DNA of 64,000 nucleotides from a virus (Duplodnaviria > Heunggongvirae > Uroviricota > Caudoviricetes). The DNA lies in the IMG/VR virus record IMGVR_UViG_3300033144_006348. The stretch is one strand, 5' to 3'. The notes under the pieces were generated by a model. It saw nothing but the letters and a program-made list of their open reading frames with translations. It was not told where the DNA came from and did not search any database. Both the position numbers and the translations under genes were made by a program. Positions within the stretch are counted from its first letter, which is position 1; each line of letters begins with the position of its first letter. This document shows, piece by piece, positions 25,107-63,217 of this stretch.

Positions 25107-25120
25107 AAGGAAATAAACGA

Positions 25121-50303: not shown

Positions 50304-50381
50304 CGGGGTGTAGCTCAGTCTGAGTAGAGCGCTCGGTTTGGGGCCGAGGTGTCGGAGGTTCGAATCCTCTTACCCCGACCA
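50304..50381 (+). tRNA. tRNA-Pro (anticodon TGG)
   Basis: Hand-folded cloverleaf. Acceptor CGGGGTG/TACCCCG, anticodon loop TTTGGGG, T-loop TTCGAAT, A discriminator, encoded CCA. Confidence 0.8.
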
Positions 50382-50422
50382 TTTTAGAAGTAAACTAAAA
50401 CAGTGAAAGGGAGAATTAGTGA

Positions 50423-50698
50423 ATGAATCTTAGGAAAAAAAGTTATAAAAGTATTGTTGCACCATTGGTCAAAATGGCAGGGGATCTAAAAGATTACGCC
50501 GACAGTCAAAAAACTGTAATCTTAGATTTGGTAGAGAAGAAAACCAAGATTGAGAGCGACATGGAATCATCACAGCTTGAAATAACAAGATCACAATACA
50601 CCTCAGAAAAGATTTCAGAATTGTTAGCTTCTGATGGGGTTGACGACTATGAAGAAGATCCAGAACAAGATGAAACAAAACCAGAAATAACAGAATAG
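50423..50698 (+). CDS. Small acidic hypothetical protein (91 aa)
   Basis: Lies between two tRNAs. RBS GAAAGGGAG. Confidence 0.4.
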   Translation: MNLRKKSYKSIVAPLVKMAGDLKDYADSQKTVILDLVEKKTKIESDMESSQLEITRSQYTSEKISELLASDGVDDYEEDPEQDETKPEITE

Positions 50699-50706
50699 AG
50701 ATGAGT

Positions 50707-50791
50707 GCCAGTGTGGCGTAACTGGTAGGCGCGCATGATTTAGGATCATGTGTCTTAGGGCGTGGAGGTTCAACTCCTCTCACTGGCACCA
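50707..50791 (+). tRNA. tRNA-Leu (anticodon TAG), type II with long variable arm
   Basis: Acceptor GCCAGTG/CACTGGC, anticodon stem CATGA/TCATG, loop TTTAGGA, encoded CCA. Confidence 0.8.
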
Positions 50792-50822
50792 TTTTTAATT
50801 CACGAATTGCGAAAGGAGTATT

Positions 50823-51059
50823 ATGAAACAAGATGAAATTGATAGAGTAGAAAAAGTAAAACAGGAACACGCACAAAATTTAAAAGAAAAGATGAAATCA
50901 ACTGGAGATAAATTTCAGGATTTCGTAAACTGTTTAGAATATATGAAACACGAGTTTTGTTATGATGAAATAAAGGTAATAATATCAAGCTCCTCTAGTA
51001 ATCCAACGCTTGAATGGTCCATAGAAACCTCTAGAGAAAATATAGAGACTAAAAAATGA
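50823..51059 (+). CDS. Hypothetical protein (78 aa)
   Basis: RBS GCGAAAGGAG 7 nt before the ATG, directly after tRNA-Leu. Confidence 0.4.
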   Translation: MKQDEIDRVEKVKQEHAQNLKEKMKSTGDKFQDFVNCLEYMKHEFCYDEIKVIISSSSSNPTLEWSIETSRENIETKK

Positions 51060-51454
51060 GTCAAGAATTTGTACAATTTACTTTTCCATGTTCTGATTGT
51101 ATAGTCAGAGCAGCATGTAAAGACCAAGAAAGATTAACAGTTAAGGATCTATATAACACTAAATCTGCCAAATGTCTTACAATACCAAAACTCGAAGATG
51201 ATAAATCATATCATAAAGTCTTAATGGAATGTATGGCAAATTTATTCAAAGATATAATGGGCAGTGTACAAAAAGATGAAGATCCAATAGGAGTGAATAA
51301 AGAAAACAAACTTCCTTACAGATATGTTACATTATTTTATCAGATGGCATGTGCTATGCAATACATGGTAAATTCAACAAGCTGGAAAATAGGTGAATTG
51401 AAAGATTTTGATAGGGATGAAATAAATAGAAAGTTGAAGCTTGCTAAACTGTGA
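51056..51454 (+). CDS. Cys-motif protein related to the P-C-x2-C-I-V family (FPCSDCIVRAACKD)
   Basis: Core motif present; 132 aa. Confidence 0.4.
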   Translation: MSQEFVQFTFPCSDCIVRAACKDQERLTVKDLYNTKSAKCLTIPKLEDDKSYHKVLMECMANLFKDIMGSVQKDEDPIGVNKENKLPYRYVTLFYQMACAMQYMVNSTSWKIGELKDFDRDEINRKLKLAKL

Positions 51455-51798
51455 AAAAAAATATTCATGAACTTCTAAAAATATGTAATGAAAATAGTGG
51501 AAAAATCCTAAGATCAAAAGAGATTTTAAAACTATTTGGATATTCTACAAACACTAATGTTAATGAAACAACAGCTGGCTATTTTTTAACAATGGCGGGT
51601 AATTCTCCTGGTTCTGGTACGCCACAAATGTGGAAAATAGGTAGTTGGGTAATTGTTACAAGAGATGAACTAAATAGTTTAGTAAATCCGAAAGACATAT
51701 GGGAAGGTAGATGGACAACAATAAAATATAATCAATATTTATTTCCTAGAGACCGTATTCCATGGTGGAGACTAAAGGAATATGGTGGAAAATTATGA
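51451..51798 (+). CDS. Hypothetical protein, tandem paralog 1
   Basis: LLKICNENSGKILRSKEILKLFGYS..WKIGSWVIV..WWRLKEYGGKL. Confidence 0.4.
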   Translation: MKKNIHELLKICNENSGKILRSKEILKLFGYSTNTNVNETTAGYFLTMAGNSPGSGTPQMWKIGSWVIVTRDELNSLVNPKDIWEGRWTTIKYNQYLFPRDRIPWWRLKEYGGKL

Positions 51799-52130
51799 AA
51801 GACATATATGATCTGCTTAGAATATGTAATGAAAATAGTGGTAAGGTTTTAAAAACTCCAGAGATTTTAGAACTATTTGGATACTCTATAAAAAGTAGCA
51901 TATTTCAGACAAAAGTTATAGAATTTTTGTTTTTTCAAGGATATATACATCCATCAAACTATTGGAAAATTGGAAGTTGGGTGCTTCTCTCTTATAAAGA
52001 ATTAAGAGAATATGAACCAGAAGAAAGACAAGCATATTTTGAGGCAAGTAAAATATCTAAAAATCTATATCTATATGATAAAAATAAAGTTGAATGGTGG
52101 AATCTAAAGGAATATGGAGGTAATCTATGA
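51762..52130 (+). CDS. Hypothetical protein, tandem paralog 2
   Basis: LLRICNENSGKVLKTPEILELFGYS..WKIGSWVLL..WWNLKEYGGNL. Confidence 0.4.
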   Translation: MVETKGIWWKIMKDIYDLLRICNENSGKVLKTPEILELFGYSIKSSIFQTKVIEFLFFQGYIHPSNYWKIGSWVLLSYKELREYEPEERQAYFEASKISKNLYLYDKNKVEWWNLKEYGGNL

Positions 52131-52302
52131 CTATAGAGGCATTTCAAATATTATCTAATTTTTATTCTACAATAGTTCTAATAGGAATGGCGGTATGGTG
52201 GAGTCGTAAGAGTAAAATAGATAGACTTGTAAAGGGTATTCTCTTAATCGGTGGTATGATGGAAATTTTTACTATTATTTTAAATTTGTAGAAAGGAAAT
52301 GT

Positions 52303-52680
52303 ATGTTAAGACAAGATGGAGAATATATTATCTTTATTATACAACATAAATATAAAGATAAAAAAGTTGAAGGCTGGAGTAATTCAGGAGATTGTGGTCA
52401 GTTTTTTCCTAACGGGCCATTTACAGAAAAGGAATGGAGAACCAAACATAAAGAAATAGATTATTTTAATGCATCGGGGGATTGCTGGCAAGATACTGGA
52501 GTACATGGAACATATGATCTAAACGAGGCATTTCAGCTTTTAGTGAAGGTAATTCAATGGGCTCCAGAACACAGATTCCGTATTGCAAGAATAGAAATAA
52601 AACAAAAAACAGAACAGGTTGCAGAAGCCAAAGGGAACGAAAGTAAATCAAAAGAAGAAGTAGAAGCAGTATTAACATAG
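52303..52680 (+). CDS. Hypothetical protein (125 aa)
   Basis: RBS GAAAGGAAATG. Its stop abuts tRNA-Thr. Confidence 0.4.
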   Translation: MLRQDGEYIIFIIQHKYKDKKVEGWSNSGDCGQFFPNGPFTEKEWRTKHKEIDYFNASGDCWQDTGVHGTYDLNEAFQLLVKVIQWAPEHRFRIARIEIKQKTEQVAEAKGNESKSKEEVEAVLT

Positions 52681-52681
52681 T

Positions 52682-52758
52682 GCCGATGTAGCTCAGCAGG
52701 CCAGAGCTGGGGTTTTGTAAACCTCATGTCGCAGGTTCGATTCCTGTCATCGGCCCCA
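52682..52758 (+). tRNA. tRNA-Thr (anticodon TGT)
   Basis: Acceptor GCCGATG/CATCGGC, D-stem GCTC/GAGC, anticodon loop TTTGTAA, encoded CCA. Confidence 0.8.
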
Positions 52759-52776
52759 TTTATGAAAGGAGAATCA

Positions 52777-53301
52777 ATGCAAAAACACACCGATATTACA
52801 GTTGGGTTATTTGGCACATGTGACAACATTCCTTGGCGTATACCCTTTATCGAACGGTATGAAAAAGAAGGAATAAAGTGGTTTAATCCCGATTATGGTT
52901 CTGGATGGCATCCAGGATGCATACCTGAAGAGAATTATTTTTTAAACAACGCTGAAATCATCTTATTTCCTATCCTAAAAGACTCCCTAGGGTCTGGTAG
53001 TCTTGCAGAGATAGGGTTCAGTATACAGAACGTAGTACGAAATATTCAAAATGGTAAACAACAGTTCCTTATAGTACTCATAGATGATGACTGTACTGAT
53101 GAACGCAAAACGGATGAAGAAAGAAAAAGGTCTATCAAGGATAGAAAGTTAGTCAAAACTAAGTTAATGGAAAAACTGTCATATCCATCCATAACCATAG
53201 TTAATTCGCTTGAAGAGATGCTTGATCTTAGTGTCGATCTTTACATACTTGCGAAGAAAGGGGAGACAGTAGAAGATAACAGCGAAAGTACGGCTTCTTA
53301 A
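52777..53301 (+). CDS. Hypothetical protein (174 aa)
   Basis: ATG 52777 lies 18 nt after the tRNA CCA, with RBS GAAAGGAG. Confidence 0.4.
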   Translation: MQKHTDITVGLFGTCDNIPWRIPFIERYEKEGIKWFNPDYGSGWHPGCIPEENYFLNNAEIILFPILKDSLGSGSLAEIGFSIQNVVRNIQNGKQQFLIVLIDDDCTDERKTDEERKRSIKDRKLVKTKLMEKLSYPSITIVNSLEEMLDLSVDLYILAKKGETVEDNSESTAS

Positions 53302-53307
53302 TTTAAT

Positions 53308-53399
53308 GCCCCTGTAGCTCAATGGATAAAATTCTTAACAGAAAACAGAGCACCTGAACTGTCAGGTAGACGTTGGTTCGAATCCTGCCGGGGGCACCA
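53308..53399 (+). tRNA. Atypical tRNA-like gene (92 nt): perfect acceptor stem and T-arm, ~20-nt insertion in the D-loop region, non-canonical 6-nt anticodon-region loop AACTGT; identity undetermined, possible pseudo-tRNA
   Basis: Acceptor GCCCCTG/CGGGGGC, A discriminator, encoded CCA, T-loop TTCGAAT. D-region reads GCTCAATGGA[taaaattcttaacagaaaac]AGAGC. Confidence 0.4.
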
Positions 53400-53420
53400 T
53401 TTAAAAGAAAGGAGTGAAAA

Positions 53421-53639
53421 ATGGGATATGATCTCAATACAGTTGGAGATATTAGAAGAAGATTAAAACAATATCCATCAGACTTAAAAGTATTAACTCT
53501 TCACGATGGACTTGGTTATCCAATTAATGAAATTAGAGTTACTTATGTTAAACCAGATAAAAATTGGTCAGGTGACGACTGTTTCATAGGGGCTGAAGAA
53601 GATGATCCTGATGCTATTCAAGTTCTGGAGATTGACTAA
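53421..53639 (+). CDS. Small hypothetical protein (72 aa)
   Basis: RBS AAAGGAGTGAAAAATG 22 nt after the tRNA-like gene. Confidence 0.4.
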   Translation: MGYDLNTVGDIRRRLKQYPSDLKVLTLHDGLGYPINEIRVTYVKPDKNWSGDDCFIGAEEDDPDAIQVLEID

Positions 53640-53872
53640 TGAAATATCATATTGCTTATCAAGATGGTGATGATGCAATACTTTCCAGTTTTAATTCCAT
53701 GGAAGATTTAAAAAGGTTTATGACATCATGTAATCTACAACCAGATGATGTATGGTTAATTGAAGGAGGTGAACTAATTTCTGGGATTGGAAATAAACAC
53801 ATGCCAAAGGAATTTTTTGATGATAAAAGAAAACGGAAAAATAGTAAAATGCCCCGAATGCGGAAGCGATGA
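53639..53872 (+). CDS. Small hypothetical protein (77 aa)
   Basis: ATGA overlap with the upstream gene. The C-terminal basic tail overlaps the next ORF, so its true end is uncertain. Confidence 0.3.
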   Translation: MKYHIAYQDGDDAILSSFNSMEDLKRFMTSCNLQPDDVWLIEGGELISGIGNKHMPKEFFDDKRKRKNSKMPRMRKR

Positions 53873-53984
53873 TATTGAAGCGCCTATGCCATTTGATTAT
53901 ATAAAGCGATGTAATAATGATGAGTGCCCATTTTATTTAGAGAATAATATGAGAAATGAATTTATGACCGGTGAACATAATTAA
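53820..53984 (+). CDS. Small zinc-ribbon protein (CPECG..CNNDECP)
   Basis: Internal ATG of track ORF 53787..53984. Its stop abuts tRNA-Arg. Confidence 0.3.
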   Translation: MIKENGKIVKCPECGSDDIEAPMPFDYIKRCNNDECPFYLENNMRNEFMTGEHN

Positions 53985-54064
53985 GCCTCTGTAGCTCAGT
54001 CCGGAAGTAGAGCAGCTGGTTTCTACCCAGCATGTCGGGGGTTCAAATCCCTCCAGGGGCTCCA
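53985..54064 (+). tRNA. tRNA-Arg (anticodon TCT)
   Basis: Acceptor GCCTCTG/CAGGGGC, anticodon stem GCTGG/CCAGC, loop TTTCTAC, encoded CCA. Confidence 0.8.
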
Positions 54065-54080
54065 TTTTGAAAGGATCTTT

Positions 54081-54266
54081 ATGAAGATATTCAACATATT
54101 TTGGGTAGAATCTCCATGCAAAAAATGTATCATTCGACCATGCTGTCATAGAAGAGATGATTGTGACACAAGATTTGAATTTGAAGAAGGAATATTTTTT
54201 AGGATATTAAGTGCTGGGTTTGCAGGAATTATATTTGGAATTATAAGAAACATAACTGGAATTTAA
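54081..54266 (+). CDS. Tail-anchored Cys-rich zinc-ribbon mini-protein (SPCKKCIIRPCCH + C-terminal TM)
   Basis: Family motif. TTTGAAAGGA RBS directly after the tRNA. Confidence 0.45.
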   Translation: MKIFNIFWVESPCKKCIIRPCCHRRDDCDTRFEFEEGIFFRILSAGFAGIIFGIIRNITGI

Positions 54267-54284
54267 AAGAGAAAGGAGTGAAAA

Positions 54285-54458
54285 ATGTCAATTAATGTAG
54301 AGGATATTGTTGTTGATTTTGAATGTCCAGAATGTAAGTTAACACAACAATCTTCAGTTGGTGATATAATCGAAGTAGGATGCCCTGTATGTACCGTATG
54401 TCAACACAATCCTATAATGTGTCATGGAGATGCATGGATTTATGAAAACAGAACGTGA
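54285..54458 (+). CDS. Small double CxxC zinc-ribbon protein (57 aa, below the ORF-track cutoff)
   Basis: Hand-translated MSINVEDIVVDFECPECKLT..GCPVCTVCQHNPIMCHG. RBS GAAAGGAGTGAAAAATG. Confidence 0.35.
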   Translation: MSINVEDIVVDFECPECKLTQQSSVGDIIEVGCPVCTVCQHNPIMCHGDAWIYENRT

Positions 54459-54480
54459 ATTAATTGGAAAGGAGTGAATA

Positions 54481-54912
54481 ATGGAAACATTTACATCAGG
54501 TGCATCAGTATTTGAAGAAATGCTTGGAGACATTGATTATCCAGAAGATAGTTTTGCGGGAAAATTATATAAATTTAAATGTAGGGTAGGTTGTGTTAAA
54601 AGACGACCTCCTCGTCATGACTATTTTGAATATATTCTTGAGATGGGAGTTGGAGATATTGATAAAGTATTTAAAGGTGAGTCTTTTGATGGGAAAACAC
54701 ATTTAACATTTGTATTTCCTGAGAGATATATGGCAGTTACTGAGCAACAGGCATTTACAAGTATTTTAAACAACCATCCAGAGGCAGATTCTTTAGAACA
54801 AGTCGATATTATAACATCTTGCCCTATGCTAATTGGTTCTTTTCACAACGTACAAATTAGAATTCTAACATGGGAAGACGATCATCTATATGATTGTGGT
54901 AATACTGGTTAA
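54481..54912 (+). CDS. Hypothetical protein (143 aa)
   Basis: RBS GGAAAGGAGTGAATAATG. Confidence 0.4.
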   Translation: METFTSGASVFEEMLGDIDYPEDSFAGKLYKFKCRVGCVKRRPPRHDYFEYILEMGVGDIDKVFKGESFDGKTHLTFVFPERYMAVTEQQAFTSILNNHPEADSLEQVDIITSCPMLIGSFHNVQIRILTWEDDHLYDCGNTG

Positions 54913-54931
54913 AATTTGAAGTGAATTTATA

Positions 54932-55171
54932 ATGCGATACTTAATATTGAATATTAATGAAAATTTTACTCTGCTATGTCATAAAGACCCGTGTAAAAAA
55001 TGTATCGTCCAACCAGCATGTAGTATGTTATGTAAAGAAAAAATTCAACTGGATATTATGTTATATCCATACAATTCTTGGTTTGTAAGATTTCTGGCAG
55101 GAGTGGTTTTATTTGTTCCCTTAAGTATGGTAGTTTATACCTTTGTAATGATATATAAAGGGCTAACATGA
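54932..55171 (+). CDS. Tail-anchored Cys-rich zinc-ribbon mini-protein (DPCKKCIVQPACSMLC + TM)
   Basis: Family motif with a hydrophobic C-terminus. Confidence 0.45.
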   Translation: MRYLILNINENFTLLCHKDPCKKCIVQPACSMLCKEKIQLDIMLYPYNSWFVRFLAGVVLFVPLSMVVYTFVMIYKGLT

Positions 55172-55190
55172 AAATATTAAGAGGTTTAAT

Positions 55191-55430
55191 ATGGGAATAA
55201 TAAAGTGGTGGATTGACGAAATCCAAAAAGCAATAATTATTTTATTTTATAAAAACCCATGTAAAAAATGTATTGTCAGAGCAGGCTGCTCAGTTGGATG
55301 TGACCAAAAAATATATTTGACCGATCCTATTACCTTGTTAAAAATAGAAGCTACCCTGAAGTTGATAGTATTTTTCGAGATACTCTCATTACTCTATGTT
55401 TTTATATATAGAGGGATCCTTGGAGCGTAA
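55191..55430 (+). CDS. Tail-anchored Cys-rich zinc-ribbon mini-protein (NPCKKCIVRAGCSVGC + TM)
   Basis: Family motif with a hydrophobic C-terminus. Confidence 0.45.
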   Translation: MGIIKWWIDEIQKAIIILFYKNPCKKCIVRAGCSVGCDQKIYLTDPITLLKIEATLKLIVFFEILSLLYVFIYRGILGA

Positions 55431-55432
55431 AT

Positions 55433-55714
55433 GTGAAACTCATATCTTCAATGAAAGGATATAGCATCACTTCCAGCCTTCTTTGTTCTATACTTGCTGC
55501 GATGTTTATTATTCCTTTCATAAAAGAACCATGTAAAAAATGTATCGTGAGAGCTTGTTGTAGAGAATACTGTGATGAAAAAACAGAGTTTAACTCCCTT
55601 ATTAGCAATTCAAGTTTGATTGAAATCAGAATATGCGCAATAATTCTATGGTTAGGATTTATTTCCATAATTATAGCTACTTTTGCAATCACAGGAATAA
55701 TAGAGTTAACATAG
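55433..55714 (+). CDS. Cys-rich zinc-ribbon mini-protein with N- and C-terminal hydrophobic segments (EPCKKCIVRACCREYC)
   Basis: Family motif. Its stop codon overlaps the 5' end of tRNA-Gln. Confidence 0.45.
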   Translation: MKLISSMKGYSITSSLLCSILAAMFIIPFIKEPCKKCIVRACCREYCDEKTEFNSLISNSSLIEIRICAIILWLGFISIIIATFAITGIIELT

Positions 55715-55790
55715 GGGTGTTGCCTAGTCTGGCTAAGGCACGAGACCTTGGATCTCGCATTCGTTGGTTCGAATCCAACCACCCCTTCCA
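55713..55790 (+). tRNA. tRNA-Gln (anticodon TTG)
   Basis: Acceptor AGGGGTG/CACCCCT, anticodon stem CGAGA/TCTCG, loop CCTTGGA, encoded CCA. Confidence 0.75.
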
Positions 55791-55806
55791 TATGAAAGGA
55801 GAACAT

Positions 55807-56043
55807 GTGAAAAATTTTATACAAGACTTATTCTATGACTATGTAACTGTAATCTTTATCAAAAATCCATGTTATACATGTCTAGTCGCCCCTTCATGTA
55901 CAACTTGTTGTAATATATGTGAAACCACCAGAAATTATATTTGTAAAAAAGATATAGAATCTAAACAAGCCAATGCTCTTTTTGCATGGTCTTTTGTAAT
56001 ACTATTTATTATCGTTGTGTCAATTAGTTTATATATCAGTTGA
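55807..56043 (+). CDS. Tail-anchored Cys-rich zinc-ribbon mini-protein (NPCYTCLVAPSCTTCC + TM), GTG start
   Basis: RBS GAAAGGAGAAC 17 nt after the tRNA CCA. Family motif. Confidence 0.4.
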   Translation: MKNFIQDLFYDYVTVIFIKNPCYTCLVAPSCTTCCNICETTRNYICKKDIESKQANALFAWSFVILFIIVVSISLYIS

Positions 56044-56053
56044 GAAGAATAAT

Positions 56054-56138
56054 GGGGGAGTGGCGTAACTGGTAGGCGCGCGGGATTTAAGATCCCGTGT
56101 CTTAGGGCGTGAGGGTTCGACTCCCTCCTTCCCCACCA
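56054..56138 (+). tRNA. tRNA-Leu (anticodon TAA), type II
   Basis: Acceptor GGGGGAG/CTTCCCC, anticodon stem CGGGA/TCCCG, loop TTTAAGA, long variable arm, encoded CCA. Confidence 0.8.
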
Positions 56139-56153
56139 TTTGAAAGGATAAAA

Positions 56154-56507
56154 ATGTCAAGAAATCAAATTTATATAGTTTCAATTCCTAAAGAATGGGA
56201 ACCAAAAAGAAATGAGATCAAAGAAATCTATGAAAAAGAAGGTATAGGAGAAAGGGGTTATTCTTTTAATGATGCTCACAAAGATGTTCTTGAAAATATT
56301 GAAGACTTAAAATCTGAAATTCCTTTTACAGACTTTAGGGATAATTTTGAACTAGAACAAACTCGAATGATTGAGGTATTATGTGAGCGTCATAAGTTTA
56401 TACTTCATTATGATGAAGTATCATCAAATAGTTATGCTGTTATATTTGGAATAAGTCCGAAAACTTTACCAACAATAAAAGATGCTAAGAAAGGGCGAGT
56501 GAAGTAA
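56154..56507 (+). CDS. Hypothetical protein (117 aa)
   Basis: ATG 16 nt after the tRNA CCA. RBS TTTGAAAGGA. Confidence 0.4.
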   Translation: MSRNQIYIVSIPKEWEPKRNEIKEIYEKEGIGERGYSFNDAHKDVLENIEDLKSEIPFTDFRDNFELEQTRMIEVLCERHKFILHYDEVSSNSYAVIFGISPKTLPTIKDAKKGRVK

Positions 56508-56508
56508 T

Positions 56509-56697
56509 TTGGATATATACTGGTTAAGAAACCCGTGTAAAAAATGTTTGGTAAGGGCATGTTGTAGTTTGACATGTTTGAAAAAATATGAATCGGTAGA
56601 TTTTAACATAATTGCCTTATGTTTTCTCATTCTTTTTATATCATCATTTCTAGGGATTATGGAAATAATAAGAATCTTAAATGGGCGAGTGGCGTAA
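56509..56697 (+). CDS. Tail-anchored Cys-rich zinc-ribbon mini-protein (NPCKKCLVRACCSLTC + TM)
   Basis: Family motif. Its 3' end overlaps the start of tRNA-Leu(CAA) by 15 nt. Confidence 0.45.
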   Translation: MDIYWLRNPCKKCLVRACCSLTCLKKYESVDFNIIALCFLILFISSFLGIMEIIRILNGRVA

Positions 56698-56769
56698 CTG
56701 GTAGGCGCGCAGGGTTCAAATTCCTGTGAGATAATTCTCGTAAGGGTTCAACTCCCTTCTTGCCCACCA
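56683..56769 (+). tRNA. tRNA-Leu (anticodon CAA), type II
   Basis: Acceptor GGGCGAG/CTTGCCC, anticodon stem CAGGG/TCCTG, loop TTCAAAT, variable arm with GAGA/TCTC stem, encoded CCA. Confidence 0.75.
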
Positions 56770-56788
56770 AATAAATTAAGGAGTCAAC

Positions 56789-57421
56789 ATGAAAAGATTA
56801 TTAATCTTAGTTATTTTAATATTATTTATAGCATCATGCGCAACTATGGGAGAAAAAGAGACTACAGGAATGGTAACTGGTGCAGTCATCGGAGGAGTAT
56901 TAGGAGCAGTTGTAGGTCATAATACCGGTGGTAACACTGCAGCAGGAGCAGCTATAGGGGCTGCAATTGGCGGAACAGTTGGAAATAGAGCTGGCGCCTA
57001 TATGGATAAACAAGAGGCAGCGCTGAACAATGCTCTAGCTTCAGCACAGGCTGCAAATCAGGTTTCTATTCAAAGAAGTAACGACGTACTGATGGCTACA
57101 TTTAAAGGAGATGTGTTTTTTGCTAATAACTCCGCCATCGTTAAACCTGGTGGTTATGCAGAATTGGATAGGGTGGCTACAGTCCTAAATTCATATCCAA
57201 ATACAAGTATTAGAATAGAAGGACATACAAGCCTAGCTGGATCTGAGGGATATAACCAACTCTTATCAGAAAGTCGAGCTGTTAATGTAAGGAACATCCT
57301 CATTCAAAAAGGGGTTGCTTCTTCAAGAATGGTTGCGATTGGGTTTGGTAAGTCTATGCCTATATCTTCAAGTCCATCAATTAACCGGAGAGTTACGATT
57401 GTAATTACTCAAAACGCTTAA
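56789..57421 (+). CDS. OmpA-family lipoprotein (lipobox, glycine-zipper segment, C-terminal OmpA/peptidoglycan-binding domain)
   Basis: LFIASC lipobox. GAVIGGVLGAVVG glycine zipper. OmpA-like signature ..IEGHTS..GSEGYNQLLSESRA..V...L...G.....GFGKS.P......NRRV. Confidence 0.55.
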   Translation: MKRLLILVILILFIASCATMGEKETTGMVTGAVIGGVLGAVVGHNTGGNTAAGAAIGAAIGGTVGNRAGAYMDKQEAALNNALASAQAANQVSIQRSNDVLMATFKGDVFFANNSAIVKPGGYAELDRVATVLNSYPNTSIRIEGHTSLAGSEGYNQLLSESRAVNVRNILIQKGVASSRMVAIGFGKSMPISSSPSINRRVTIVITQNA

Positions 57422-57444
57422 ACAGAAAGAAAGGGGAATTTGTA

Positions 57445-57963
57445 ATGAGAAAATTGAATATGAGTATTTTGGCCTTGATTCTTGGTGGGACCATTGTTTT
57501 ATTTGGATTAAGCAGTTGCTGTTTTTTGGATATTTGTACCATTCCAAAGAGGGGCAGTAACAGTATAGCGAATGTCGTCCCAATGGAATATACCGTTCCA
57601 CAACTGGCAAGTGTAGAAGCGCCTCCACTACTCATGAAGGTCAATATTGCCGAACGTGTCTTGTTTGACTTTGATTCTTCCGATATTGATGCAAGGGGAA
57701 TCATTACCATCAGAAAAGTTGCGTTCTTCATCGACCAGTATCCGGATACGACCATCGTTCTCAAGGGACACACAGATCCGGTCGGGACAGATTTTTACAA
57801 CCAGGGTCTCTCTGAGCGAAGAGCTGAATCGGTTAAAAATGCTCTTATGGAAAATGGTGTCGATCCCGCTGCAATTGTCAGCGTGACTGGTTTTGGAGAA
57901 AGTAAAATTATCTCCGAGATCAACAGGCAAAATCGCCGGGTTATGATTCTGAACATTGAATAA
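57445..57963 (+). CDS. OmpA-family lipoprotein, second copy
   Basis: LFGLSSC lipobox. LKGHTDPVGTDFYNQGLSERRAESV..L...GV......GFGE.........NRRV. Confidence 0.5.
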   Translation: MRKLNMSILALILGGTIVLFGLSSCCFLDICTIPKRGSNSIANVVPMEYTVPQLASVEAPPLLMKVNIAERVLFDFDSSDIDARGIITIRKVAFFIDQYPDTTIVLKGHTDPVGTDFYNQGLSERRAESVKNALMENGVDPAAIVSVTGFGESKIISEINRQNRRVMILNIE

Positions 57964-58220
57964 CCTTTTTCTAAGAAGCGATCCATGTGAGAACATAATT
58001 CACATGGATCACTTCTTGTAAGTTAAAAGGAGTTATAATTGGTAAACAAAAAAGAATTATTAGAGAAAGGAGTGAAAGTTTTCAAGGACTCTGAGCAAAA
58101 AACTGATGATTATATGCAACTATTTTTAGTTGTAAGAAAAGTTCTACAACCAGCAGATGGATTGCTCTGGTCTACTATAAAAGAAGTTCTTGATGAGGTT
58201 CTTAATGAAGTATAAAATGG

Positions 58221-58299
58221 CGCGGGGTGGAGGAGTTTGGTCGTCCTCGCTGGGCTCATATCCCAGAGATCACGGGTTCAAATCCCGTTCCCGCTACCA
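58221..58299 (+). tRNA. tRNA-Met (anticodon CAT) with initiator-like features
   Basis: Anticodon stem CTGGG/CCCAG gives three consecutive G:C pairs next to loop CTCATAT. Position 1:72 is an unpaired C.U. A discriminator, encoded CCA. Position anchored on the GTG of track ORF 58227. Confidence 0.7.
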
Positions 58300-58421
58300 A
58301 TTTTTGCGTGAAGGATGCCGAATGTGCTAAGGTAGCGAGAAATAGTGGCATGGGTCGTAAGGCGACAGGCCGAGTCTTTGGCATACTGAAATCTCTCTTG
58401 ATCCGACACGCATTGAAAGGA

Positions 58422-58637
58422 ATGAATATGGGCGAAAAATATTTAATAAAAATGATGTTATTCAGTTTGTCACTTCACTCTAAAATATTCATACCAGTGT
58501 CTGAAAAATTGTTGGAAAAATATGGGAAAGGGCACTTTTTTGTAAAAGCATGGAGTGAAGTAGCTCTATTATTTTGTGGCTTAAGTAAAACTTTTGCATT
58601 AATATACTTGTTTTTATATATGGCAAAGGAGAAGTGA
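58422..58637 (+). CDS. Small membrane protein (71 aa)
   Basis: Internal ATG 58422 after GAAAGGAATGAAT. The upstream part of track ORF 58227 overlaps the tRNA and is rejected. Confidence 0.35.
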   Translation: MNMGEKYLIKMMLFSLSLHSKIFIPVSEKLLEKYGKGHFFVKAWSEVALLFCGLSKTFALIYLFLYMAKEK

Positions 58638-58639
58638 AT

Positions 58640-58813
58640 ATGGCGAATCTTGATAAAGTAATAATTTTCTTTCAATGCAAACATTGCCAAGATAAAATGG
58701 AGATGACCGCAGCTAAGTTAATGGAAGCTAGTACTAAAAGTCCTCCCATATGCTATTGTAACGAAGAAAATGATGAATTGAATGTTATAGGCGCCTATTT
58801 TAAAAGAAAATGA
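58640..58813 (+). CDS. Small CxxC..CxC zinc-ribbon protein (57 aa, below the track cutoff)
   Basis: Hand-translated MANLDKVIIFFQCKHCQDK..PPICYCNEEND. ATGA overlap with the next gene. Confidence 0.3.
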   Translation: MANLDKVIIFFQCKHCQDKMEMTAAKLMEASTKSPPICYCNEENDELNVIGAYFKRK

Positions 58814-59049
58814 AATGTCCATGCGAAAATTGCATTACATTATCTATGTGTAAAAATTTATATCCTCATAGCAAGACTGGAAATGTAATGCACGCAATAA
58901 CAAAATGCTCTCTTTTATATGATTACATAAATGTTAAAAAAATAAACACTCCAACTAATGAAATATGGTCTGATTTGGAACATGAAATACTAACCGAACG
59001 AATGGATATATTACACGAATTTTTACCGTGGAAAGAGGAGAAAAAGTGA
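58810..59049 (+). CDS. Cys-rich mini-protein of the P-C-x2-C-I family (MKCPCENCITLSMCKNL)
   Basis: Family motif at the N-terminus. Confidence 0.4.
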   Translation: MKCPCENCITLSMCKNLYPHSKTGNVMHAITKCSLLYDYINVKKINTPTNEIWSDLEHEILTERMDILHEFLPWKEEKK

Positions 59050-59426
59050 TTGAAAAGAACGTAATGAAGGTTGATGAATATAAAGATTCTATTACATTTC
59101 GTATAGCATGTGACTGTGGAGATCCTGAGCATGATACAACAATAGATTTTGAAAAAGATAAAGATCTCCCAACAATGTATTTTATGACCATTTCTAAAAA
59201 TATGGCATGGTCATGTTACTGGAAAAATAATAATTGGTTTGATGCACAATGGAGAAAACTAAAAGCTATTTTTAAGCTTTTCTTTACAGGTTATATTGAA
59301 TTGGGTGATGACTTTATTATCAAAGGTGAAGAACATATTGATTCGTTCATAAAAGCCCTTGAAGAAGGAAAAAGGCATATGAAAGGAGAAACCAGTGAAA
59401 ACTCAAGTGAAATTCAAAAAGAATAA
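59046..59426 (+). CDS. Hypothetical protein (126 aa), GTG start
   Basis: GTG 59046 after AAGAGGAG. The track start 59028 is an upstream GTG inside the previous gene. Confidence 0.35.
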   Translation: MIEKNVMKVDEYKDSITFRIACDCGDPEHDTTIDFEKDKDLPTMYFMTISKNMAWSCYWKNNNWFDAQWRKLKAIFKLFFTGYIELGDDFIIKGEEHIDSFIKALEEGKRHMKGETSENSSEIQKE

Positions 59427-59622
59427 TGATGTTGAAGTTCATACTCCAGAAAATGATACAACATTACATATGAAAAAAGATGTGTTTGATCATTTGCAAA
59501 AAATAATCAATGGGGATTATGAAACCGTTGATTATGAGGAAGATTTTAAAAGTTTTAACAATTTCAATGTTTTAATTACAGTCGAAGGGAAGTATGAATT
59601 CAATAGGATAGAACTATGTTAA
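59395..59622 (+). CDS. Small hypothetical protein (75 aa)
   Basis: RBS GAAAGGAGAAACCAGTG. Ends 9 nt before tRNA-Ser. Confidence 0.35.
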   Translation: MKTQVKFKKNNDVEVHTPENDTTLHMKKDVFDHLQKIINGDYETVDYEEDFKSFNNFNVLITVEGKYEFNRIELC

Positions 59623-59631
59623 AAAATAATT

Positions 59632-59719
59632 GGCGAGGTGCCCGAGTATGGTAAGGGAACTGTTTGCTAAGCAGCCGGGTGTAAAAGCTCCGCAGGTTCA
59701 AATCCTGTCCTCGCCTCCA
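59632..59719 (+). tRNA. tRNA-Ser (anticodon GCT), type II
   Basis: Acceptor GGCGAGG/CCTCGCC (perfect), 3-bp D-stem CCC/GGG, anticodon loop TTGCTAA, 16-nt variable arm, encoded CCA. Confidence 0.75.
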
Positions 59720-59736
59720 TTTTGAAAGGAATGAAA

Positions 59737-60018
59737 ATGGAAATTTTAGACGAAAAATTTATTATCAATAATGAAGTAACCCAAGAATTAATAAGAGGAA
59801 ACTTTGAAGAATTTCCAGAAGTCAAAAATGGAGTATGGTCTTGTGTTCAAAGAGACTATAGATTTATGTTTTTCAAGTACAAAACATTGAAAAGCATAAT
59901 TAATCATACAGATGCTATTTCAAATAAAGAATTAGAAGCAACAATAGCAATCTGGATTGACGGAAAATGTTTTATAGAATCCTCTCCTTGTCTACATTTT
60001 GAAAGGAGTGAATCGTGA
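59737..60018 (+). CDS. Hypothetical protein (93 aa)
   Basis: ATG 59737 six nt after GAAAGGA. The track start 59722 is a TTG inside the RBS. Confidence 0.4.
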   Translation: MEILDEKFIINNEVTQELIRGNFEEFPEVKNGVWSCVQRDYRFMFFKYKTLKSIINHTDAISNKELEATIAIWIDGKCFIESSPCLHFERSES

Positions 60019-60341
60019 ATGAATTATACAAGTTTCTACATAATTTTACCAAAATAGAGTTAAAAGAAATAGGCGGTGGTAATTTTGATATTGGTCAAGA
60101 ATCTGATGTATATATTGATGAGATGTTCTTGGGGTTGTCTTTAAAAGATGATCTTCTTTATATTTATTTTCATAATTGCCCAGGAAGAGATTATGTTGTC
60201 TATAAATGGCCGTGGGGAAAAGAAGAATTTGATTACTTTATAGATATTATAAACGAGGTAGAAGAAAGATCAACCATCTTAGGAATATCTTTAAAGCTTC
60301 TAACTAAATATGTAGGATTGAAAAATGTCAAACCCATGTGA
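60015..60341 (+). CDS. Hypothetical protein (108 aa)
   Basis: RBS GAAAGGAGTGAATCGTG. GTG/ATG start. Confidence 0.4.
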   Translation: MNELYKFLHNFTKIELKEIGGGNFDIGQESDVYIDEMFLGLSLKDDLLYIYFHNCPGRDYVVYKWPWGKEEFDYFIDIINEVEERSTILGISLKLLTKYVGLKNVKPM

Positions 60342-60627
60342 TGATTGTGTAGTCAAACCATCATGTACATCTGTTTGTCCTGATAAAGAAAACTATGGGG
60401 TTTTTTTAGAAATGGGTGCAAGACAGTTAAAATCATCTTTAAGACATTATACATCAAAAGGAACACAAGTTCCCAAAAGCATTCAGGATCAGAGTCTATT
60501 TCATGGTAGAAAATTAATAATTCATAACCTTGAAGTATATCGTATACAGAACAATAACAAAGGTAAGAGACTTTATAAAGATGAACATGTACCATTTCCA
60601 ATTACGAAACGAGGTAGGTTCCTATAA
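60325..60627 (+). CDS. Cys-rich protein of the P-C-x2-C-V-V family (SNPCDDCVVKPSCTSVCPDK)
   Basis: Family motif at the N-terminus. Confidence 0.4.
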   Translation: MSNPCDDCVVKPSCTSVCPDKENYGVFLEMGARQLKSSLRHYTSKGTQVPKSIQDQSLFHGRKLIIHNLEVYRIQNNNKGKRLYKDEHVPFPITKRGRFL

Positions 60628-60646
60628 AAATAGAGAAGGGAGAATA

Positions 60647-61000
60647 ATGAAAAAAATAATACTGTTTACAATTATGTTACTATGGATGTCATCTACAATT
60701 TGTTTAGCGATGGATCTGAATGAAACTGTAGGGACAATAAACTCTAAAATCAAAGTGCTATATGACTATAATCATAATGCATTTATTCTTGGACACCCTC
60801 ATCATGGAGTAATAAATGTATCAGTACCAACTAAAATGCTTCTGAAGATTAGCTTCAAATGTAGAGTAGAAGCTTTAAAATCTATTTTCGATAAAGTTGG
60901 ACCCTACATTCAAGAAGTTCGTATGATTAATGAACGAAATACTATCATTATGTATATCAAAAAGGTAGGCCGCGAAATAGAGTTACTATATCTCTTTTAA
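60647..61000 (+). CDS. Secreted protein with signal peptide (117 aa)
   Basis: Internal ATG 60647 after GAAGGGAGAATAATG. N-terminus MKKIILFTIMLLWMSSTICLA. Confidence 0.4.
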   Translation: MKKIILFTIMLLWMSSTICLAMDLNETVGTINSKIKVLYDYNHNAFILGHPHHGVINVSVPTKMLLKISFKCRVEALKSIFDKVGPYIQEVRMINERNTIIMYIKKVGREIELLYLF

Positions 61001-61016
61001 TAGAAAGGAGTGAATT

Positions 61017-61406
61017 GTGAGCGAATCATATATACATCTATTTGTAGTTCCTAAAAACTATAAAATAGAAGAAGATCGTTTTAAACAAGTATTTGAAAAT
61101 CAATACTTTAAACAAACATGCTCTCATGAGATATTTGAAGAAGTATGTAAAGTTATTGAGAATCTCGCAGGTGGTGGGAGATATATCCATTGTCAAGATG
61201 TTTTTGATGATATTGATGCAAGTGGAGATGTATGGGAGTCAATGATAGATATATTGAAAGAGGATCTAGTTCTTGTACATGAGTTTGTAGATGGAGCTAA
61301 TGGAGCGAATGACTCAATTGAATCTCTATCAAAAGAAAAATTTCAAGAAATTGTTTTGGCAATGACAGAAGTTAATAACATAATGGACCTACTGGATAAA
61401 GTTTAA
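61017..61406 (+). CDS. Hypothetical acidic protein (129 aa), GTG start
   Basis: RBS GAAAGGAGTGAATTGTG. Confidence 0.4.
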   Translation: MSESYIHLFVVPKNYKIEEDRFKQVFENQYFKQTCSHEIFEEVCKVIENLAGGGRYIHCQDVFDDIDASGDVWESMIDILKEDLVLVHEFVDGANGANDSIESLSKEKFQEIVLAMTEVNNIMDLLDKV

Positions 61407-61605
61407 AAGAAAAACTATTGGAAGGGTAGGAGGGTTCTATGAAAAGAAATAATGTGAATTTTCGAGGAATAAAATATAAAATCTTTGATTATTTTATGAA
61501 GTATCTTTTAGCGTGCGGAATTGGTGCCAACATATTTTTCATTTTTGTAATTATTTGGAAGATTACTTCGTGAAAGGATCTCAACAATTTAAAAGATAAA
61601 ATAAA

Positions 61606-61695
61606 GGAGGGGTGGCCGAGTCTGGTTTAAGGCGCTAGTTTTGAAAACTAGAGTGTGTAAAAGCTCCGGGGGTTCAAATCCCTCTCCCTCCTCCA
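61606..61695 (+). tRNA. tRNA-Ser (anticodon TGA), type II
   Basis: Acceptor GGAGGGG/TCCCTCC, anticodon stem CTAGT/ACTAG, loop TTTGAAA, long variable arm, encoded CCA. 3' end anchored 16 nt before ATG 61711. Confidence 0.75.
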
Positions 61696-61710
61696 GGTGA
61701 AAGGCGAAAT

Positions 61711-62124
61711 ATGATAAGAATTATAATCGACTGGGATTTTATGAGTCCTGTACTTGGAGTATCAAGTGGAATAGTATCAATAGACGATACTGATTATACT
61801 CGACCATATGGAGGTCAACTAATCAATATCCTAAAATTTAGAATAAAAGTTGAACCTGGTTGTTTGGGTTTTTCAGGAATAGAAGAAGGTACAGGAATCC
61901 CATCAAAACTATTTGATGTTTTTCGAGAACAAGTTTCCCAAATGGCATATTCATTTCATAGAGGGATGTTATTAGAAAATTGTGATTTCTACTGGTACGA
62001 ATCAGAAGAGATTAATCTTGAAGATCTCGAAAAAGAAAATAAAAATTACATGGAGGAAGTATCAGAGCCAGGAAAGAACACTTTTATTTATAGAGAGACA
62101 AAATCAGTAGTGATATCCCTTTAA
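61711..62124 (+). CDS. Hypothetical protein (137 aa)
   Basis: RBS GTGAAAGGCGAAATATG after the tRNA. Stop is 2 nt before tRNA-Val. Confidence 0.4.
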   Translation: MIRIIIDWDFMSPVLGVSSGIVSIDDTDYTRPYGGQLINILKFRIKVEPGCLGFSGIEEGTGIPSKLFDVFREQVSQMAYSFHRGMLLENCDFYWYESEEINLEDLEKENKNYMEEVSEPGKNTFIYRETKSVVISL

Positions 62125-62126
62125 AT

Positions 62127-62202
62127 AGGTCCTTAGCTCAGCTGGGAGAGCGCTGCCCTTACAAGGCAGATGTCGCAGGTTCAATCCCTGTAGGACCTAC
62201 CA
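62127..62202 (+). tRNA. tRNA-Val (anticodon TAC)
   Basis: Acceptor AGGTCCT/AGGACCT (perfect), D-stem GCTC/GAGC, anticodon loop CTTACAA, encoded CCA. Confidence 0.8.
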
Positions 62203-62221
62203 TTTTTCAAAGGAGTGAATA

Positions 62222-62503
62222 TTGAAATACCCATGCAGAACCTGTATAGTAAAAGCGATGTGTATGAGTAAAGGAAAAGAGTTCTTTGGTTTATATGTTA
62301 TTATAGACGAATGTAGTCTTTTACAAGATTTCTTAAAAACTACTGAAATCTATCCTATAATAAGACAAATTACTACATTTCTAAGAAAAAGAGATTTCAA
62401 AATAAAAATAAGAGATATAATTAAAGATTTAAACATTAAACAATCTAATGAACCATTATGTTGCTTATCACATAAAGATGGTTATGATAATTTTGATATC
62501 TGA
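62222..62503 (+). CDS. Cys-rich mini-protein of the P-C-x2-C-I-V family (MKYPCRTCIVKAMCMS), probable TTG start
   Basis: RBS CAAAGGAGTGAATATTG 20 nt after the tRNA CCA. Family motif. Confidence 0.4.
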   Translation: MKYPCRTCIVKAMCMSKGKEFFGLYVIIDECSLLQDFLKTTEIYPIIRQITTFLRKRDFKIKIRDIIKDLNIKQSNEPLCCLSHKDGYDNFDI

Positions 62504-62514
62504 AAGGAACGAAT

Positions 62515-62769
62515 ATGAGTGAATTACCAAAAGAAGTCAAAGAAAAATTAGATGAATGGTTTAGTGGAGATGACAAATATTCTATTCTTCATTTTTGGGA
62601 AAGTCATTATAAAGATACTTACTATATTGTATGCAGACGTTTTGATATAACTGAAGAAATAACCTTTATAAGGGTCTTTAAACTTGGAAATGAATGGGCC
62701 CTTTCTCAAGATGGAAACACTATATTACTACTGACAGATGGAAAGAACATTTCCTTTGGTTATTGCTAA
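62515..62769 (+). CDS. Hypothetical protein (84 aa)
   Basis: RBS GAAAGGAACGAATATG. Confidence 0.4.
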   Translation: MSELPKEVKEKLDEWFSGDDKYSILHFWESHYKDTYYIVCRRFDITEEITFIRVFKLGNEWALSQDGNTILLLTDGKNISFGYC

Positions 62770-62771
62770 TA

Positions 62772-63053
62772 ATGGAATGTCCATGTGAAAATTGTATAGT
62801 TCTAGCAATATGTAAAAGTATAGACCATGGACCATTAACAATATTTGAGCTCATAGACCATTGTAGTATTTTAAAAGAATTCTTGCAGATCCGCGGTTGT
62901 AATAAATTCCCTAGAGAAATCAGGACTGATCTCACAATACTATACTTTAAACTTGCAATTAGAGAAATAAATAAATTCTTAAATACACAATCGTCTGGTA
63001 TATTGATAGCCTTTTATTCATTTCATGATGGTGTTTATAATTTTTATTTGTAG
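62772..63053 (+). CDS. Cys-rich mini-protein of the P-C-x2-C-I-V family (MECPCENCIVLAICKS)
   Basis: Internal ATG 62772 gives an N-terminus parallel to 58810 (MKCPCENCITLSMCK). Confidence 0.4.
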   Translation: MECPCENCIVLAICKSIDHGPLTIFELIDHCSILKEFLQIRGCNKFPREIRTDLTILYFKLAIREINKFLNTQSSGILIAFYSFHDGVYNFYL

Positions 63054-63217
63054 CATATATAAGTTTGTGCGAGGAACCTAATGGAGGATGGTGGTTGCAA
63101 TTCTTAGTGAGTACTTGACTTGTTCATGTGGAAACGACTGACAAGAATGTGTAGAACAAAACCATGATAAGATTGGGGCGCTAATCTTATTAAATTGGAT
63201 ACACCCGCACAATTAAT

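Follow-up and report, generated by a model that had tools for sequence, protein, structure and literature searches.

Four cysteines in a '3+1' arrangement, a close triad plus one remote residue, hold a [4Fe-4S] cluster in several protein families. CX2CX5CX3C is the Cys pattern of SPASM domains, and the 3+1 arrangement is found for [4Fe-4S] in RseC and Dna2-type nucleases, as well as in Endo III and the Wbl proteins. In the Wbl proteins a C-x2-C-x5-C triad is followed by hydrophobic residues, and the fourth Cys lies upstream of the triad. Wbl proteins are small four-Cys proteins (80-120 amino acids) that are often phage-encoded and bind host sigma-A (PMC6954389; PMC8612146), and all reports of them come from Actinobacteria and the phages of these bacteria (PMC13013590). 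RseC of E. coli has a cytoplasmic N-terminal CX2CX5C that forms an O2-sensitive [4Fe-4S] cluster, followed by transmembrane (TM) helices (PMC11729352). A similar triad recurs in IMG/VR virus record IMGVR_UViG_3300033144_006348, of which a single stretch of 64 kb (34% G+C), here called the window, was analysed. Eighteen open reading frames (ORFs) of the window carry the triad and a fourth, downstream Cys, and are shown to be real genes of one phage-restricted superfamily that is described in no database and has undergone an unusual expansion of paralogs. The best overall explanation, to which we assign a probability of about 0.5, is a phage-restricted four-Cys superfamily in which a metal module supports a set of diversified host-interaction adaptors.

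In a six-frame translation of the window the strict regular expression PC..C[ILVM][VIL]...C matches 17 ORFs, with 0.0 expected from 100 second-order Markov shuffles, and the loosest form, C..C.....C, gives 24 matches where 2.4 are expected. The 18th member, at 58810 (members are named by their first coordinate), has CIT in place of CIV. A hidden Markov model (HMM) of the module was run on every stop-to-stop ORF of 30 amino acids or more, 934 in all; it returns exactly 18 matches at E<=1.3e-4, and the next best match has E=0.14. A preliminary description of this DNA had counted at least 19 paralogs. The motif is indeed present at every coordinate listed there, including the more distant ones (the 23222-25569 set, 37476 on the minus strand, 51056, 58810, 60325, 62222 and 62772), and the heavy duplication that it reported is plain from 18 copies in 64 kb, but regular expression and HMM agree on a total of 18. 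At 54081-56697 six members rather than seven are found (54081, 54932, 55191, 55433, 55792 and 56509). The neighbouring ORF at 54285-54458 is no member but a zinc-ribbon ORF of the ordinary CPxC...CPxC kind. Of the 18 members, eleven lie in a block of tRNA genes, six beside the capsid gene (23.2-25.8 kb) and one in the replication module, on the minus strand (37476-37694). In the order of their classes, which are described below, they are as follows (SD, Shine-Dalgarno sequence).

54081..54266, plus strand: subfamily B, 61 amino acids, PCKKCIIRPCC and C-terminal TM helix; 16 nt after tRNA-Arg, SD GAAAGGA
54932..55171, plus strand: subfamily B, 79 amino acids, PCKKCIVQPACSMLC and C-terminal TM helix; modelled with AlphaFold
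55191..55430, plus strand: subfamily B, 79 amino acids, PCKKCIVRAGCSVGC and C-terminal TM helix
55433..55714, plus strand: subfamily B, 93 amino acids, N-terminal hydrophobic helix, PCKKCIVRACCREYC and C-terminal TM helix; GTG start behind GGAG
55792..56043, plus strand: subfamily B, 83 amino acids, PCYTCLVAPSCTTCC and C-terminal TM helix; between tRNA-Gln and tRNA-Leu(taa)
56509..56697, plus strand: subfamily B, 62 amino acids, PCKKCLVRACCSLTC and TM helix; TTG start, the least certain member
23222..23425, plus strand: subfamily A, 67 amino acids, 8 Cys, N-terminal CxGCx3C and CPCGYCIVKAMC...C; recent tandem duplicate of 23422
23422..23628, plus strand: subfamily A, 68 amino acids, 8 Cys
23625..23858, plus strand: subfamily A, 77 amino acids, 8 Cys; 64% identity with 25569
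24656..24883, plus strand: subfamily A, 75 amino acids, 8 Cys
24927..25106, plus strand: subfamily A, 59 amino acids, 8 Cys
25569..25805, plus strand: subfamily A, 78 amino acids, 8 Cys
37476..37694, minus strand: soluble short-spacing form, 72 amino acids, PCKTCIVRGMCKESC; replication module, adjoins the DnaB helicase gene
51056..51454, plus strand: 132 amino acids, fourth Cys 16 residues downstream; conserved ortholog in related phages between tRNA-Leu(tag) and tRNA-Thr
58810..59049, plus strand: subfamily C, 79 amino acids, MKCPCENCITLSMC...CSLL; external ortholog at 69% identity
60325..60627, plus strand: soluble short-spacing form, 100 amino acids, MSNPCDDCVVKPSCTSVC
62222..62503, plus strand: subfamily C, 93 amino acids; TTG start, SD AAAGGAG, 19 nt after tRNA-Val
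62772..63053, plus strand: subfamily C, 93 amino acids, MECPCENCIVLAIC...CSIL; modelled with AlphaFold (alpha+beta domain)

Members 55433 (GTG) and 56509 (TTG) are absent from the Joint Genome Institute (JGI) gene calls on a duplicate contig, and because that caller skipped both, their starts are less secure. The true start of 55792 is probably the GTG at 55807, 5 nt after the SD AAAGGAG.

The only invariant columns in an alignment of the 18 sequences are P, C, C, C and C. Codons at the invariant P/C/I/V positions vary synonymously (CCA/CCC/CCG/CCT; TGT/TGC; ATT/ATA/ATC; GTC/GTA/GTT/GTG), which shows selection on the protein and not on a DNA repeat. The motif could otherwise be imagined as a by-product of repeated DNA, left as recombination or duplication scars near tRNAs, with the ORFs themselves non-functional. 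Direct repeats of 33-61 nt do span the motif, two members with non-ATG starts were skipped by the gene caller, and a relic of a tRNA-Leu 5' end precedes 56509. However, synonymous codons vary freely at the invariant residues, and hundreds of diverged homologs retain both these residues and the TM architecture, by which this idea is effectively refuted. In addition, the members have SD sequences and intact frames, and matches fall in one frame per gene where 0 are expected by chance.

The module shared by the superfamily spans ~20 residues, [KR]-[ND]-P-C-x2-C-[IL]-[VT]-x-[AP]-x-C-x(3-48)-C, and its four invariant Cys form a tight CX2CX5C triad with one distal Cys. It occurs in several architectures. 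Subfamily A (six window members, 8 Cys) carries an additional N-terminal CxGC...C cluster. Subfamily B (six members at 54-57 kb) consists of [KR][ND]PCKKC[IL]VRACCSxxCExK, a linker of ~20 residues and a single C-terminal TM helix. In subfamily C (58810, 62222 and 62772) the module lies at the extreme N-terminus, M..PCxxCI[TV]LAxC, and the fourth Cys is displaced by 8-48 residues into a CSLL..Y helix, after which a variable alpha+beta domain of ~70 residues follows. A short soluble form, D, keeps the x3 spacing and is represented in the window by 37476 and 60325. The 166 distinct complete members collected from all fetched loci comprise 22 A, 80 B, 46 C and 18 D. The exact C-x2-C-x5-C-x3-C spacing is found in 75 of the 80 B, 16 of the 22 A and 12 of the 18 D members; it is not found in C, where the fourth Cys lies at +8 to +48. 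Profile-profile comparisons between classes give probabilities of 93-98%, over the module of 20-33 columns only. The [AP] position two residues before the third Cys is common to all classes though it is not part of the regular expression, and in other phage contigs single tandem arrays contain a mixture of architectures A, B and C. For these two reasons the classes are treated as one superfamily.

The six B members of the window all end in a TM helix (Kyte-Doolittle mean over 19 residues of 2.0-2.7) with 0-5 residues after it, and by the same measure no TM helix is found in the other 12 window members. At least six of seven members had been described as ending in this way, with 55433 in doubt; the TM helices stand, but the count becomes all six, 55433 included. 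A single TM helix after the module is present in 200 of 222 B-type proteins, with a median of 4 residues beyond it. The segment between module and TM helix has a net charge of +3.1 in these 222 proteins, and the positive-inside rule is obeyed. No signal peptide is found in any member. Taken together, the lack of a signal peptide and the positive-inside rule indicate that the module is cytoplasmic and, in subfamily B, is predicted to lie on the inner face of the cell membrane. TM and charge analysis thus bear out, for the members at 54-57 kb, the proposal of tail-anchored proteins with a cytosolic Cys module, and this predicted topology is better founded than the nature of the metal.

Being small single-TM proteins from a lytic T4-like phage, the members of subfamily B might also be lysis or permeability factors (holin, antiholin or pinholin-like) or exclusion proteins that block injection, like T4 Imm and Sp, in which the Cys motif is incidental, and phage WhiB-type Fe-S (iron-sulfur) proteins have been linked to superinfection exclusion (PMC8612146). 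Such a role is very unlikely as the explanation. Six differentiated copies per genome are atypical for holins, which usually number one or two per genome and are encoded beside an endolysin or spanin, the short tails after the TM helix leave essentially no periplasmic residues, and no endolysin or spanin was recognised among the scanned neighbouring ORFs. It would also leave unexplained the presence of the same module in 12 soluble paralogs of the same genome.

The statement in the preliminary description that the motif fits no known protein family agrees with all searches. Pfam and PHROGs, searched with ~100 members individually, show no recurrent family, with scattered single matches at E~0.01-0.1. 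The same is true of NCBIfam, against which members were scanned individually, and of PADLOC, scanned with the 18 window members. Member 51056 matches phrog_28328 (E=0.0026), a family of unknown function. Among PDB sequence profiles the best matches are an SdhB Fe-S motif (E=1) and zf-HIT (E=7.7), both of them noise. The AlphaFold model of 54932 (predicted local distance difference test, pLDDT, 79.5) begins with a helix at the N-terminus, has a short helix at PCKKC and a loop of low confidence at the other Cys, and continues with a further helix and a TM helix of 30 residues. That of 62772 (pLDDT 75.5; predicted template modelling score, pTM, 0.64) shows four short Cys-bearing helices, a beta-hairpin, a helix and a second beta-hairpin. 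Three fold searches found no fold relatives of either model. A search of the literature found nothing on the family or on comparable phage paralog expansions (~47 tandem copies).

The conserved Cys suggest that the module chelates a metal centre. By analogy with characterised sites, an Fe-S cluster seems slightly more likely than structural zinc, because the close Cys triad, the remote Cys and the hydrophobic residues after the second Cys match [4Fe-4S] sites. One of ten proteins scanned gives a faint match to the SPASM model TIGR04085 (E=0.011) over exactly the motif. AlphaFold confidence is lowest precisely over the Cys loop in both 54932 and 62772, and low confidence over the Cys region has also been reported for RseC (PMC11729352).

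A structural zinc site, either a ribbon or a knuckle, is a possible though more doubtful alternative. The members would then be cytosolic Zn mini-proteins, some of them membrane-anchored, and the explanation would differ in metal and redox sensitivity but in nothing else. This alternative is favoured by the four invariant Cys of so small a domain and by the tiny four-Cys zinc-ribbon and rubredoxin-knuckle proteins that are frequent in phages and present in the same block (CPxC...CPxC ORFs at 54285-54458, 53787-53984 and 58634-58813), and zf-HIT was one of the two insignificant PDB sequence matches. However, a zinc ribbon has two CxxC pairs (often CPxCG) in beta-hairpin knuckles, whereas the family has a single CxxC pair, the second half being a C...C with a variable spacing of 3-48 residues. 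The local prediction is helical, and in the AlphaFold models the Cys fall in helices and loops, with no beta-hairpin knuckles. Neither the invariant Pro nor the [IL][VT] pair belongs to the ribbon signature, Fe-S sites typically have the CX2CX5C(X3C) spacing, and no zinc-ribbon or zinc-finger profile of Pfam or NCBIfam matches at E<=0.1 among ~100 members. The single CxxC, the lack of beta-knuckles and the additional invariant Pro and hydrophobic pair set the module apart from a generic rubredoxin or zinc-ribbon motif, and the 'Zn ribbon' of the preliminary description is not upheld.

Beyond the window, the 18-member alignment retrieved 37 database proteins, none of which has a name or a Pfam domain. 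An exhaustive profile search of 1.84 billion cluster representatives with an alignment of 29 subfamily B sequences yielded 595 matches at E<=1e-3, of which 102 reach E<=1e-10, and all of the best 150 of these 595 are 57-152 amino acids long. A profile search with a subfamily C alignment added 87 matches. No domain fusions occur, even in the longest members. The family is widespread in metagenomes. A tblastn search of 50,697 cultured-phage records with a subfamily B protein gave no match, and 185,579 prokaryotic species genomes (one genome per species) contain a single locus, on a 54-kb contig in an archaeal metagenome-assembled genome. This contig carries five members together with tRNAs and is probably a mis-binned phage. 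In 64 loci (229 kb) from metagenome and species-genome collections there are 186 motif ORFs, with 1-13 members per locus, and the contexts of the loci read in other contigs are phage-like. Tandem arrays of 8-13 members occur in other phage contigs. A phage contig of 309.6 kb (loci L099 and L103) has about 47 module-HMM matches on one strand within ~22 kb, a number that excludes variants such as PCxxCPSxAxC, which the HMM misses. Gene turnover could not be read from a comparison of L099 with L100, as these are the same phage at 100% identity.

The copies in the window differ in age. Each of the six B copies has a better match outside the window than within it (for example 70.9 versus 40.4 bits for 55433), which indicates that they are old, differentiated types common to several phages. 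In subfamily A, 23222/23422 (58% identity) and 23625/25569 (64% identity) are pairs of mutual best matches and form tandem DNA units of 203 nt at 63-85% identity, so that the A copies probably represent a recent, lineage-specific burst. The A cluster beside the capsid gene is absent in 30 relatives. Copy number in the syntenic slot between tRNA-Arg and tRNA-Gln varies from 0 to 4 across relatives.

The large array in L099 bears on a further reading, in which the proteins are precursors resembling RiPPs (peptides that are ribosomally synthesised and modified post-translationally), the Cys N-terminus serving as recognition or leader sequence and the variable C-terminus as a core processed by radical S-adenosylmethionine (SAM) enzymes. 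The conserved N-terminus and hypervariable C-terminus of subfamily C are compatible with this, and the array lies ~2 kb downstream of the following cluster.

L099, 1-6119: twitch-domain radical SAM protein (NF033640, 326 bits), a 444-amino-acid unknown and a FabH-type ketoacyl-ACP synthase III

The same cluster contains three further radical SAM genes, of which two are generic on scanning and the third, cut by the locus end, is known from precomputed Pfam annotation. However, six unrelated genes separate the cluster from the array, and none of the 64 scanned loci came with a maturase. In the window the sole radical SAM candidate, a weak QueE-like ORF, lies at a distance of 10-20 kb from every array. 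The fourth invariant Cys falls inside the supposedly variable part, AlphaFold predicts a folded alpha+beta domain, and subfamily B has TM anchors. The RiPP reading is highly improbable in general and was rejected for the window, where no maturase of the radical SAM/SPASM, LanM, YcaO or a similar type is found near the arrays.

For the preferred explanation, that of diversified host-interaction adaptors, the following mechanism can be suggested. The metal centre would nucleate a tiny fold, a variable tail or membrane anchor would give each paralog its target or location, and the phage would use the set as accessory adaptors in host takeover, exclusion or counter-defence. A role in host interaction is favoured because a conserved scaffold is combined with variable tails, rapid change in copy number and confinement to phages; that this concerns takeover, exclusion or anti-defence is suggested by the small size, paralog diversification and phage restriction. 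A more specific version, which we consider unlikely in all its parts together, is that the set consists of combinatorially diversified miniature Fe-S adaptors, sensitive to redox state or oxygen and 'Wbl/RseC-like' outside Actinobacteria. Soluble paralogs would then dock on different host proteins of transcription or defence, and tail-anchored ones would engage membrane redox complexes (Rnf/Rsx).

A number of points weigh against the adaptor explanation and its Fe-S form. The evidence for homology between A, B and C is partly circular, the members having been gathered by a regular expression on the module. Neither of the matches to known Fe-S proteins is significant: the SPASM TIGR04085 match scores 16.2 bits against a cutoff of 27, and the hhalign probability with RseC is 1.8%. 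Four-Cys zinc sites are common among small phage proteins. No homology links any member to a function, and the massive paralogy could reflect dosage or a selfish dynamic of duplication and not diversified targets. Promoters give no expression timing, as sigma-70-like sequences are not enriched in the window (72 found versus 64 expected) and neither is the T4 late-promoter TATAAATA (11 found versus 12 expected).

Most of the window members lie in the tRNA block, which has the following components.

50304..63301, plus strand: co-directional block of 13 tRNA genes interleaved with small ORFs, with 11 of the 18 members
53308-53396 and 63218-63301, plus strand: two extra tRNA-like genes found with Rfam (43.3 and 39.2 bits; gathering score 29) and missed by ARAGORN

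The total of 13 tRNAs includes both of these Rfam-only genes. In relatives the tail-anchored copies occupy the same slot, from tRNA-Arg or tRNA-Leu to tRNA-Gln, and a distinct tRNA array, Gly-Phe-His-[member]-Cys-Lys, also houses a member. Of the 186 members, 58 have a tRNA within 300 bp, in every case on the same strand. CCA is encoded in 196 of 203 tRNAs. Downstream of 147 of the 203, at a distance of no more than 30 nt, come an SD-like sequence (typically GAAAGGAG) and then a start codon. For 78 of the 203, an ORF that is 40 codons or longer ends between -15 and +45 of the tRNA 5' end, and just 15 of these 78 ORFs are family members. The largest family arrays have no tRNA at all. The low share of members and the tRNA-free arrays show that the tRNA association is not family-specific. 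The special link between family and tRNAs that had been suggested is therefore not sustained, although the slots are syntenic; the block is a densely packed accessory-gene region that recruited members, with no family-specific functional partner. It had also been stated that each of the members at 54081-56697 follows a tRNA or a sibling, which is true of four of the six, but 54932 and 56509 follow unrelated ORFs.

The operon anatomy of the block can be described as tRNA-punctuated. As at 54064-54081, each tRNA encodes its CCA, and ~5 nt beyond it come the SD GAAAGGAG and a start codon. For ORFs upstream of tRNAs, the stop codon lies at the next tRNA or within it. The TAG stop codon of 55433 overlaps tRNA-Gln by 2 nt (55712-55714/55713), an overlap that recurs at six further distinct junctions in other contigs, and 56509 runs 15 nt into tRNA-Leu(caa) (56683-56697), so that its last five codons and stop lie inside the tRNA. 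RNase P cleavage at such places would leave non-stop mRNAs. An 18-nt relic at 56490-56507 resembles the 5' end of tRNA-Leu (AAAGGGCGAGTGAAGTAA, compared with AATGGGCGAGTGGCGTAA at 56680-56697) and forms the end of the ORF immediately upstream of 56509. This relic hints that cassettes of member and tRNA spread through recombination at tRNA 5' ends. In relative L001 a tRNA with a CTA anticodon (an amber suppressor, labelled Pyl by ARAGORN) and a transfer-messenger RNA (tmRNA; tag ADDYYDELRLAA) are present at 18893-18967 and 19666-20034; the window itself showed neither a suppressor tRNA nor a tmRNA. Other small Cys-rich ORFs of the block that are not members occur at 53787-53984, 54285-54458, 58634-58813 and 63373-63564. 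Three of them belong to the classical CPxC...CxxC zinc-ribbon type, and the other contains a run of CGCCSGCC.

The window belongs to a T4-like jumbo phage that has not been cultured, and carries genes for a Gp23 capsid protein, a Gp20 portal protein, a family B DNA polymerase fused to a uracil-DNA glycosylase (UDG)-family domain and a DnaB helicase. The capsid protein is 63-85% identical in 30 IMG/VR contigs, and because these reach sizes of up to 312 kb the clade is one of jumbo phages. Megablast of 24 kb against the cultured-phage records gave a tRNA match only and no close relative. Relatives L001 and L002 carry the polymerase fusion, the DnaJ-like Cys protein and the tRNA block as in the window; positions 1-462 of L002 encode ribosomal protein S21 and Cpn10. 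Other genes of the window are listed here.

11467-13353, plus strand: SPFH/Band 7 domain protein, 628 amino acids
41584-42270: weak QueE-like radical SAM ORF beside the family B polymerase gene
42287-45550, minus strand: UDG-superfamily domain fused to the N-terminus of a family B DNA polymerase; fusion also in L002
46168-46806, plus strand: protein with a DnaJ-type CXXCXGXG zinc-finger segment, 212 amino acids; conserved beside the tRNA block in L001 and L002
56789-57421 and 57445-57963, plus strand: two adjacent OmpA/Pal-type proteins inside the tRNA block

The first of the OmpA/Pal-type proteins has a lipoprotein-like signal (…IASC) and a glycine zipper, and the best intrinsic terminator of the region follows the pair at 57980-58010. 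The pair and its lipoprotein-like signal suggest a diderm host and possible envelope remodelling. Strong AAAGGAG Shine-Dalgarno sequences are found throughout the window (for example at 54066-54080, 55795-55801 and 62208-62214). Such consistently strong signals in a phage of 34% G+C point to a host with canonical SD-led initiation, which presumably makes Bacteroidota unlikely as the host.

Large paralog families are rarely kept in phage genomes; here there are 18 genes in 64 kb and about 47 consecutive ones in the related phage of 309 kb. With the family defined, a sizeable portion of jumbo-phage dark matter could be annotated. Its tail-anchored subfamily would represent a novel class of phage proteins that work on the cytoplasmic side of the host membrane. 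The module is compact and easily synthesised, which offers a route to testing Fe-S or Zn mini-adaptors against host targets. If the set does consist of Fe-S adaptors, it would be the first large adaptive multigene family described in bacteriophages, at 18 to about 47 copies per genome, and would bear comparison with the expansions of host-range and immune-evasion genes in poxviruses and giant viruses.

Among known systems, RseC/MucC (PF04246) is the closest architectural analogue of subfamily B, with a cytoplasmic CX2CX5C triad before a TM helix and thus the same architecture and topology. This is an analogy and not homology. Although hhalign sets RseC KASCSSCASRAGC in register with the subfamily B consensus KNPCKKCIVRACC, the probability of 1.8% and the lack of any PF04246 match in the Pfam scans led us to reject homology. 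RseC also has two TM helices and a C-terminal cytoplasmic domain, lacks both the invariant Pro and the x3-C fourth Cys of the family, and is encoded by a single-copy cellular gene. SPASM/twitch domains (TIGR04085) share the identical C-x2-C-x5-C-x3-C spacing of most subfamily B members. However, SPASM is the C-terminal domain of radical SAM enzymes of ~350-450 amino acids with Cys split over two clusters, whereas the family consists of stand-alone proteins of 57-152 amino acids without a radical SAM (CX3CX2C) core.

The Wbl proteins have the triad in common with the family, but the fourth invariant Cys of the family lies downstream, and the phage is low in G+C, T4-like and encodes Pal/OmpA-type lipoproteins. 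The Wbl signature is a Gly-rich beta-turn (G[VI]WGG) with a C-terminal AT-hook (PMC6954389). Membership was rejected, as none of the 166 members has a Gly-rich turn or AT-hook and the Pfam scans of ~100 members gave no match to Whib (PF02467). Eukaryotic CYSTM and LITAF proteins, which are Cys-rich and either tail-anchored or monotopic, resemble subfamily B in combining a short cytosolic Cys-rich segment with a C-terminal membrane anchor (PMC2804304, PMC5095921). They are unrelated in sequence and arrange their Cys differently, so the resemblance is one of analogy only. Expanded multigene families, with tens of diverged tandem paralogs and changing copy number, are known from eukaryotic giant viruses and poxviruses. 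The present family is like these in forming tandem arrays on one small scaffold, with a copy number that differs between relatives. If its paralogs have distinct host partners, it would be for phages what the adaptive multigene families are for large eukaryotic viruses.

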